Source of the DNA: Marinicella sp.
GTDB lineage: Bacteria > Pseudomonadota > Gammaproteobacteria > Xanthomonadales > Marinicellaceae
Direction of reading: 5' to 3'
DNA length: 64,000 nt
Assembly: GCA_965230295.1 (NCBI GenBank)
Contig: OZ246001.1
Location: forward strand, 2,304,001 to 2,368,000
Part shown: piece after piece, positions 2,869 through 4,578 of the stretch
How positions within the stretch are numbered: position 1 is the first letter of the stretch
Layout of the letters: every line of letters starts with the position of its first letter
The notes under the pieces: generated by a model
What the model was told of the DNA's origin: nothing
Databases searched by the model: none
Seen by the model: only the letters and a program-made list of their open reading frames with translations
Made by a program: the position numbers and the translations under genes

Positions 2869-3756
2869 TCAATCAATTGGTTTTTTATAGGGTTTGGAAC
2901 CATCCGCCTGGATGCTGAACCGCTTGTAAGTCCATTGGTATTGGCAGGGGTTGATGTTGACCATTTCCTCAATCACCTGGTTCATGGTGGCAACTGATTC
3001 ATCTAAATTCAAATAAATGGAGTTTGGAGCCAATTTGAAATGTAAGTCGAAACCTTGTCCTTCAGGTAACCGCTCAGCGACAGCAAACACAACAGGGACC
3101 CGGGTTTTGATGGCCACTTTGCTGAATAAAGTCATGGTGTAGGCATCCTGTCGCATGAATGGTGCATACACACCTTGCCCGCTTTTCGGTTGTTGATCAG
3201 GTAATATGGCCAGGATGTGTTTCTGTTTCAATACCTTAAATACCTGGCGAACACCTTTGGCATCAGCCGTGATTTGGTTGGCGCCACCGGAGCCACGGTA
3301 TTTAAGTAATAACTGCTCTATTTTAGGATCTGTGGGGGGTTTGTAAAGGAAAGAAAACCCAGGATGTTTTGACAACCAAAGGTTCAAAACCTCCCAGTTT
3401 CCAAAGTGAGGTGCGGCCAACAACAACCCGGATTTTTTTTTCAGTGCATCTTCGAAAACTTCAAGACCATGGATGTTCTGTATGATGGCATCAATGTCAT
3501 TGCTGTATTTTTTCCAAACCAGGCCCAGCTCAAACATGGATTTGACGGTCTCGACCAAACTGTCTTTGGCCAGTTGTTGTTGTTCAGGTTCATCCAAATT
3601 CGGGTAACACAGTTGGATGTTGGTGGTGGTGATGCGCCGTTGCTTTTCTGACCAGCGCCACACCAGGCGGGCCATGAATGCAGCCCAATTGTGGGATGTC
3701 TTTAATGACAACCAGTTACTGATGTGAACAATAAATTGGAATAAGAAGGCTCGCAT
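2869..3756 (-). CDS. lpxL: Lipid A lauroyl/lysophospholipid acyltransferase (LpxL/HtrB family)
   Basis: HFGNWE (HX4D/E), ILPDQ and PCQYQWTYKRF motifs. Confidence 0.8.
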   Translation of the reverse strand: MRAFLFQFIVHISNWLSLKTSHNWAAFMARLVWRWSEKQRRITTTNIQLCYPNLDEPEQQQLAKDSLVETVKSMFELGLVWKKYSNDIDAIIQNIHGLEVFEDALKKKSGLLLAAPHFGNWEVLNLWLSKHPGFSFLYKPPTDPKIEQLLLKYRGSGGANQITADAKGVRQVFKVLKQKHILAILPDQQPKSGQGVYAPFMRQDAYTMTLFSKVAIKTRVPVVFAVAERLPEGQGFDLHFKLAPNSIYLNLDESVATMNQVIEEMVNINPCQYQWTYKRFSIQADGSKPYKKPID

Positions 3757-3821
3757 CAGCGTATTTTATAGGAAAAAGTTTACAGTTGAAGATTAATGTC
3801 ATGATCAATGGTTTTACAGAC

Positions 3822-3855
3822 AAAAAAAACCGCCATTCAATGAAGAACAGCGGTT
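3822..3855 (-). terminator. Rho-independent terminator of the minus-strand sRNA
   Basis: The minus strand reads aaccgctgttc-ttcatt-gaatggcggtt followed by a run of T. Confidence 0.8.
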
Positions 3856-4045
3856 AATTCACGGGGACTCCAAACACAAAATCCCCTCATCCTTTATTCC
3901 CGAGTTTGGTACTTCATGTACCTGATCATCACTCCTTGTCAACAACCATTGGAACCAGTTCCCTGATTCCTCCTTCGTGTGCCTCATTGGCAGGTAAGTC
4001 ATGATGTCAAGTCCTTGGTGACTTACTTAATCCCTGGAAGTATTG
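3822..4045 (-). ncRNA. CsrB/RsmY/RsmZ-like CsrA-sequestering sRNA (putative; 5' end uncertain, could extend to ~4082)
   Basis: 10 GGA motifs in ~165 nt on the minus strand, several in hairpin loops (tactt-ccAGGGAtt-aagta, gtca-ccAAGGAct-tgac, ggaatcag-GGAA-ctggttcc, gac-AAGGA-gtg). No ORF in the track, 3' terminator present, upstream GacA-like box. Confidence 0.75.
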
Positions 4046-4090
4046 TGTTCTATTGGGATGCTGAAATCTGTCCATAGATTCTGAAAGCTT

Positions 4091-4108
4091 TGTAAGAAAA
4101 TGACTACA
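4091..4108. promoter_or_regulatory. GacA/UvrY-type upstream activating sequence for the sRNA
   Basis: TGTAAG-aaaatg-ACTACA versus consensus TGTAAG-N6-CTTACA, about 50-65 bp upstream of the first GGA hairpin. Confidence 0.6.
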
Positions 4109-4154
4109 AGTACTTTTCGTAGTTGATTGAGTTTTTTTGCAAGTATTAAAACGG

Positions 4155-4211
4155 TGACTGAAGTCAACGCTCCGAGGAAATTGTCGGTATGCCGACTTCA
4201 GCCGACATCAG
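4155..4211. repeat. REP-like doublet (GACTGAAGTC family), inverted copy of 2694-2750
   Basis: gactgaagtcaacgc...gccgacttcagccgacatcag matches the reverse complement of the doublet at 2694-2750. Confidence 0.7.
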
Positions 4212-4292
4212 ATGAGCGTATAGCTCGGTTCATCAATGACTGGCGATCAGGCAAGCATGCAATGGGGATCATTCAATTTGAGTTGATGCCGA

Positions 4293-4520
4293 TCAGGACT
4301 CGGCGCTGCCTGATGATTGATTGTCAGACGATTTTGATTTGTTTTTAAAATCCGTTTCATACCAGCCAGTGCCTTTCAAACGAAAACCGGCGGCCGATAC
4401 TTTTTTCACCAAGCTGGCTGTGTCACAGCTGGGACAATCAGTCAAAGCAGCATCTGACATTTTCTGAAGTTTTTCTAATTCATGACCGCAATCTTGGCAT
4501 TGGTATTCATAAATTGGCAT
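4293..4520 (-). CDS. FmdB family zinc-ribbon protein
   Basis: MPIYEYQCQDCGH...CPSC...GFRLKGTGWYETDF signature. Confidence 0.92.
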   Translation of the reverse strand: MPIYEYQCQDCGHELEKLQKMSDAALTDCPSCDTASLVKKVSAAGFRLKGTGWYETDFKNKSKSSDNQSSGSAES

Positions 4521-4548: not shown

Positions 4549-4578
4549 TCACAGGGTGATGGTTTGTTCACCCTGTGA
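4549..4578 (-). terminator. Hairpin/terminator downstream of clpB
   Basis: tcacagggtga-N8-tcaccctgtga, 11-bp perfect stem, followed on the minus strand by tttcttttt. Confidence 0.65.

Follow-up and report, generated by a model that had tools for sequence, protein, structure and literature searches.

The minus strand of a 64,000-nucleotide stretch of a Marinicella genome (hereafter the window) carries what comparative sequence analysis identifies as a real non-coding gene, conserved and structured, that is flanked by a promoter and a terminator of its own. Its predicted product, a stand-alone RNA of ~214 nt, most likely acts as a sponge for CsrA (RsmA) and as an output of a Gac/Csr cascade, a reading to which we assign a probability of about 0.78. 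As judged by sequence, the small RNA (sRNA) appears to be a new, family-restricted sequence family within the known class of Gac-driven CsrA sponges. A preliminary description of this DNA had proposed a CsrB/RsmZ-like RNA, and the computational tests run here lend support to that proposal, apart from Rfam membership.

The genome, a single contig of 4.0 Mb with 44% G+C, belongs to a genus that NCBI places in the order Lysobacterales, family Marinicellaceae. The sRNA occupies the ORF-poor gap between fmdB, which encodes a 75-aa FmdB-family zinc ribbon (4520-4293, minus strand), and lpxL, the gene for an LpxL-type lipid A acyltransferase (3756-2869, minus strand). Read along the minus strand, this gap contains in order TGTAGTCATTTTCTTACA, TCAGAATCTATGGACAGA, CACAAT, a GGA-rich stretch and an 11-pair hairpin followed by T8, and the gene order across Marinicella loci is clpB-(fmdB)-sRNA-lpxL. 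A further terminator-like hairpin of 11 pairs with a T-rich tail is found between clpB and fmdB (window 4549-4578, minus strand).

With its 5′ end set by the −10 box and its 3′ end by the U-run, the predicted sRNA extends over 3822-4035 (minus strand), slightly short of the 220-260 nt first estimated, and matches the family covariance model with 183 bits. Counting in 4035-3822 returned the 10 GGA and 6 ANGGA motifs originally reported for this strand. The RNA opens with a variable 5′ domain (3970-4035), which carries GGA at RNA positions 3, 22, 63 and 66 together with a gcc-aauga-ggc hairpin, and continues, on the same strand, with hairpin H1 (3952-3969, loop GGGAAC), hairpin H2/3 (3923-3948, loop AAGGA within ACAAGGAG) and hairpin H4 (3908-3922), whose loop reads AUGAA in this copy and AGGA, CGGAU or UGGAU in many relatives. 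A single-stranded linker, ACUCGGGAAUAAAGGAUGA (3887-3907), in which CTCGGG is invariant across a 15-sequence alignment (A1), separates H4 from hairpin H5 (3863-3886). The intrinsic terminator (3822-3860) closes the gene, and a terminator scan places its stem at 3855-3828, with 11 pairs, and its U-run of eight at 3829-3822; this terminator, as well as the hairpins ggtac-atgaa-gtacc and gcc-aatga-ggc, had been named beforehand and all three were recovered on the minus strand.

BLAST searches detected the sRNA region in 15 of 23 congeners at ~70-88% identity and in none of 17 genomes outside the genus. A covariance model (R1) built from A1, the alignment of 15 copies, extended the set to 20 of the 23 congeners, the remaining three being assemblies of 300-460 contigs and 66-94% completeness. 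R1 also matches in further genera of the family, namely in the one g17 genome, in all three g19 genomes and in four of 15 g18 genomes, and gave no match in the single g2 genome or in any of the 133 genomes searched across 11 further families of the order. Among the genomes searched, the sRNA is thus restricted, by sequence match, to Marinicellaceae. A pattern scan of contigs returned 27 stretches, 16 of which belong to the family (15 titled Marinicella and one Lysobacterales MAG); the other 11, from unrelated phyla and devoid of the U-run, were set aside as chance matches. An nhmmer search of the source genome with the RNA profile found no paralogue of the sRNA.

The predicted structure is conserved as well. 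From the 15 copies of A1, RNAalifold predicts five hairpins, and 21 of the 41 pairs show compensatory changes. In a larger alignment of 29 model-aligned homologues (A4), from which five antisense terminator matches were excluded, standard pairs occupy 93.1% of cells, as opposed to 33-52% when the partners are slid, double-sided changes occur in 31 of the 41 pairs (8-18 with slid partners), and the covariation score reaches 0.432 (at most 0.124 with slid partners). None of 500 shuffles attained the observed pairing and covariation values. Alignment to a covariance model is fitted to the model structure and therefore favors pairing counts, a bias that the slid controls share. Double changes affect all six pairs of H1, all eight of H2/3 and all eight of H5, where 96% of cells pair, and six pairs of the 11-pair terminator helix covary across the 29 homologues. 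The terminator U-run counts at least seven T in 29 of 29 homologues and at least eight in 28. That the RNA lies on the minus strand follows from its many G-U pairs, its U-run and the −10 box; its minimum free energy corresponds to a z-score of −2.75.

Windows of 214 nt contain on average 2.08 GGA in this genome and only ~0.015% of them hold 10 or more; dinucleotide shuffles of the RNA itself, a weak null, contain 7.5 on average and reach 10 in 643 of 5000 cases. An eleventh GGA (AUGGAC) at ~4072 lies outside 4035-3822. When the consensus pairs are enforced on this copy, two GGA fall within hairpin loops, one (position 22) does so in part, ~4 are single-stranded and three are paired, so that the initial picture of GGA in several hairpin loops applies to two or three motifs. 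About seven of the 10 are nevertheless at least partly exposed in this consensus-constrained fold, as is characteristic of the Csr/Rsm class. Across the 29 homologues, GGA is found in the H2/3 loop in 25, in the H1 loop in 19 and in the H4 loop, which lacks it in this copy, in 16; at least one GGA is present in the single-stranded linker CUCGGGRAU..AGGA in 28, and at least one in the aligned segment upstream of H1 in all 29, although the 5′ domain is poorly alignable. Furthermore, the H2/3 loop contains ACARGGA in 14 of the 29 homologues, the genomic background being 0.016 occurrences per 200 nt. The CsrA SELEX consensus, RUACARGGAUGU, has this heptamer as its core; according to the excerpted text of PMC4347634, its ACA and GGA are invariant and GGA is displayed in a hairpin loop.

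Several other GGA-rich stretches came to light in the course of the analysis. One array outside the window, on the minus strand of the source genome (G000, contig C1, 3149188-3148883, L058), spans ~306 nt with 14 GGA, mostly as AUGGAU in small hairpin loops, and ends in a hairpin and U-run. The 200 nt upstream of it hold no GacA-like box (the best site has five mismatches), it matches no Rfam family, and BLAST against 15 congeners returned a single partial match of 41 nt; it may represent a strain-specific second CsrA sponge. Another array on the same contig (1596334-1596685, minus strand, L057) consists of repeated ACUCAAGGAUGAGU-type hairpins with 12 GGA per 214 nt; it is preceded by a promoter-like site (TTGACA/TATATA) and by a hairpin resembling a terminator. 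Its flanks alone match relatives, some of which carry several copies of its upstream part, and no Csr/Rsm Rfam model matches it. At 195314-195538 (minus strand, L059), a long hairpin with GGGAUGG and ACAAGGA, present as two copies in tandem, precedes an ORF and may form a CsrA-bound 5′ UTR. Additional GGA-dense windows of the genome are accounted for by REP/MITE-like repeats of the GGATCCCGGATC..CCGGGATGACG type, which form ORF-free, GC-rich palindromic regions on the same contig, for example at 216926-217158 and 1111713-1111960, as well as at 1937188-1937424, 1983842-1984081 and 2565176-2565390.

The region upstream of the sRNA bears a well-defined conservation footprint. In an alignment of 15 promoter sequences (A2) it reads CTACGAA-N-CTTGTAGGAAATTTCTTACAAG, followed by TCAGAATCTATGGACAGA, 21 unconserved nucleotides and CATAAT. 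In the window, these correspond to the near-invariant upstream element CTACGAA (4116-4122, minus strand), which is a possible extra half-site, to an 18-bp inverted repeat of the GacA/UvrY type (4091-4108, TGTAGTCATTTTCTTACA on the minus strand), to the conserved element TCAGAATCTATGGACAGA (4067-4084, minus strand) and to a predicted −10 box, CACAAT (4042-4047, minus strand), which is CATAAT in most relatives and whose positions C84, A85, A87, A88 and T89 are invariant in A2. The element at 4067-4084 includes a segment (4065-4080) previously described as an AUGGA hairpin. Its sequence is indeed kept and its pairing is not, and we interpret it as promoter DNA rather than RNA, since it is conserved as sequence only and lies upstream of the predicted start. 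With 21 nt between them, its T(T/G)GACA and the −10 box do not show the spacing normal for a −35 element. We also considered TGGACA-N-GC as a sigma-54 site and rejected it, since in relatives the sequence is TTGACA or the GC is missing; TCAGAAT... bears a weak resemblance to the IHF consensus and is not claimed as an IHF site.

The inverted repeat had been singled out from the start as a GacA-type box, and its reverse complement does match TGTAAG-N6-CTTACA at 10 of 12 positions, as do many relatives at 11 of 12, in keeping with the boxes of the Csr/Rsm class. Across the family the box reads TGTAGG-N6-C(C/T)TACA, with relatives showing mostly TGTAGGAAATTTCTTACA or CCTACA and several g18 and g19 genomes a perfect palindrome; each half-site departs at one position from the consensus for UvrY/GacA, TGTAAGNNNNNNCTTACA, as that consensus is given in the excerpted text of PMC4682653. 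Sites with up to two mismatches occur 124 times in the genome, against ~208 expected from composition, so a single match is not significant on its own and the box gains its weight from being conserved, at a constant spacing, in relatives. Box and −10 box start 61-62 nt apart in all 15 loci compared. An automatic scan recognized a box 60-62 nt before NATAAT in ~22 of the 29 homologues, two more Marinicella loci (G012 and G013) have a box recognizable by eye, and the g19 loci possess one at a different spacing. In g18, a CCTACA half-site is found upstream of the box, 3 nt away.

Parts of this promoter module recur elsewhere. Copies composed of the CTTACA half-site and TCAGAAT..GACAGA precede small cysteine-containing ORFs at 3758944-3758905 and 704239-704204 of G000 C1 (both minus strand), and in the congener G001 (loci L020 and L029) a partial module precedes ORFs that resemble, by eye, Y1 (RAYT/IS200-type) transposases. 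Because such parts also stand before protein-coding ORFs, GacA is only a candidate for the factor that binds the module.

Both protein partners that the preliminary description had expected are encoded in the genome, a pairing typical of Csr/Rsm-class systems. The single csrA reaches 92.9 bits (Pfam cut-off 27), and the full length of NF007018 is matched by one GacA/UvrY-like regulator at E = 4e-82, whose 275 bits fall just below the NCBIfam cut-off of 280. In the family as a whole, csrA is present in 36 of 44 genomes; it was not found in the other eight, which include four fragmented assemblies that carry the sRNA (G006, G010, G012 and G017). A full-length regulator of the UvrY/SirA/GacA model occurs once per genome in 42 of the 44, and none of the 44 passes the 280-bit cut-off. 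The best candidate for a BarA-type tripartite kinase is a weak match, at 396 bits versus a cut-off of 890.

We propose a mechanism in which transcription of the sRNA would be turned on by a phosphorylated response regulator of the GacA/UvrY type, encoded elsewhere on the chromosome, that binds the 18-bp palindrome centered ~65 nt upstream of the predicted start through half-sites that, in this family, are TGTAGG/CYTACA instead of TGTAAG/CTTACA. Several CsrA dimers would then bind the GGA/ANGGA motifs of loops and linker, and this binding would draw CsrA off its mRNA targets, making the sRNA the output of the Marinicellaceae Gac/Csr cascade.

The same data could in principle describe a genuine structured, trans-acting sRNA with another main job, such as Hfq-dependent base pairing, or a palindrome recognized by a regulator of the LuxR/NarL type that is not GacA, and we regard this alternative as unlikely. 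It would fit the lack of a match to any Csr/Rsm model, the departure of the box half-site from the canonical one, the presence in the genome of further GerE-family regulators (for example NarL/MadR-like) and the recurrence of the promoter module before protein genes. It does not, however, readily explain why GGA is kept specifically in loops and linker over 29 homologues, nor the ACARGGA core in the H2/3 loop; moreover, A1 displays no apparent conserved single-stranded seed beyond the GGA-bearing segments, and each genome has a single full-length regulator of the UvrY/GacA model.

Less probable still is a role as a cis-acting 5′ leader or attenuator of lpxL. The RNA does lie directly upstream of lpxL, and co-oriented with it, in all Marinicella loci of sufficient extent, as well as in g17 and three g18 loci, and the sRNA is separated from lpxL by only 65 nt here. 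Yet a cis-leader would always be co-oriented upstream of its gene and co-transcribed with it, whereas no lpxL is found nearby in g19 (L090, L091 and L094) or at L096, and the ORF that comes next is convergent in L091, in L096 and in L090, where it is a GIY-YIG gene. The U-run of at least seven, retained in every one of the 29 copies, argues against such a leader as well. By reading of window positions 3757-3821 and the homologous spacers, moreover, all 20 loci have a conserved TAnAAT hexamer that ends 6-8 nt ahead of the ATG of lpxL and lack a Shine-Dalgarno sequence; the two features together suggest that lpxL has its own promoter and a leaderless mRNA. Taken with the promoter footprint, the terminator and the lack of a conserved ORF, the convergent downstream ORFs at three distant loci point to an independent non-coding gene, as expected for the Csr/Rsm class. 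Finally, we consider it extremely improbable that the locus is a small-protein gene, for which two short minus-strand ORFs are listed (3859-4002, 47 aa, and 4027-4167, 46 aa), or a spacer that is rich in GGA by chance. Across the 29 homologues, the longest ATG ORF within the RNA has anything between 3 and 47 aa and attains 47 aa in the source genome only; indels in A1 do not come in threes; and covariation and a conserved promoter and terminator speak against a chance spacer.

Returning to the Gac-driven sponge, a more speculative extension, which we hold to be doubtful, is that the Gac site drifted to TGTAGG-N6-CCTACA in this lineage, that the module formed by its right half-site and TCAGAAT-N-TATGGACAGA may also drive protein genes directly (the two small ORFs here and the RAYT/Y1-transposase-like genes in a congener), and that the placement of the sRNA, in nearly all loci, a few tens of nucleotides before a leaderless lpxL may be functional. 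If so, lipid A acylation would be coupled to the Gac/Csr state, either by read-through or by occlusion of the promoter.

How the sRNA relates to known sponges can be judged from models, promoter architecture and published descriptions. No Rfam family reaches its gathering score within the 64-kb window; the Csr/Rsm models give no match at the locus (3700-4350) at E values up to 10, nor on the homologous RNA of seven relatives' loci at up to 0.5. By this measure the RNA falls outside Rfam CsrB, CsrC, RsmY, PrrB_RsmZ and rsmX and, as had been anticipated, standard annotation would probably miss the locus, since none of the Rfam CsrB/CsrC/Rsm models detects the RNA. Matches to NsiR1, suhB and PyrR at permissive E values were rejected as chance hits driven by the terminator. 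The sRNA nonetheless resembles the RsmX/Y/Z RNAs of Pseudomonas in being a stand-alone gene with a rho-independent terminator, in having an 18-bp GacA-type palindrome tens of nucleotides before the −10 box and no good −35, in placing its first GGA at the extreme 5′ end and ANGGA in short hairpin loops and linkers, and, in one relative, in the presence of a tandem second copy. It departs from them (PrrB_RsmZ, RF00166, and relatives) in the missing Rfam-model match, in the half-sites TGTAGG/CYTACA and in its confinement to Marinicellaceae. Pseudomonas Rsm RNAs measure ~110-130 nt, and the sRNA is longer at ~214 nt. The tandem RNA, observed in a g18 genome (G055, L093 1268-1470, minus strand), is a second, shorter GGA-rich RNA of ~120 nt between the sRNA and lpxL. 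It is equipped with a box (TGTATGAAAATTCCTACA) and a terminator of its own, and its match to Rfam PrrB_RsmZ is weak (22.3 bits versus 44, E = 0.18).

CsrC comes close to the Marinicella sRNA in both size and number of GGA motifs. Like CsrB and CsrC of E. coli and Salmonella, which the excerpted text of PMC4682653 describes as activated by UvrY at an 18-nt inverted repeat, the sRNA combines many GGA sites, which in CsrB and CsrC titrate CsrA, with an upstream inverted repeat of that length. The palindrome is centered at about −65 here, in contrast to near −183/−182 in E. coli (PMC4682653, same text), and neither the CsrB nor the CsrC Rfam model matches the sRNA.

A literature search returned no paper naming both 'Marinicella' and 'CsrA', and within the NCBI order Lysobacterales the closest published counterpart in kind is RsmU of Xanthomonas, the one sponge known there. 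Like RsmU, the Marinicella RNA is, by its sequence features, a putative RsmA/CsrA sponge outside the known Rfam families. RsmU is described, in the excerpted text of PMC7694677, as an RNA with three to four GGA that is processed from the 3′ UTR of comEA mRNA and is found in Xanthomonas only; the Marinicella RNA instead has its own Gac-type promoter, 10 GGA and a clpB-fmdB-sRNA-lpxL context, and is therefore distinct from RsmU by published description rather than by sequence. Also for Xanthomonas, rsmB homologues are reported, in the excerpted text of PMC3937308, as not identified. The regulator proposed here is of a familiar kind that would not surprise a specialist. It reveals a variant GacA-box half-site and provides Marinicellaceae, a marine family, with a concrete and testable output RNA for the Gac/Csr cascade, along with a covariance model for its annotation. 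Next to RsmU, a stand-alone, Gac-box-driven sponge in Lysobacterales would indicate that the classical wiring exists in that lineage.
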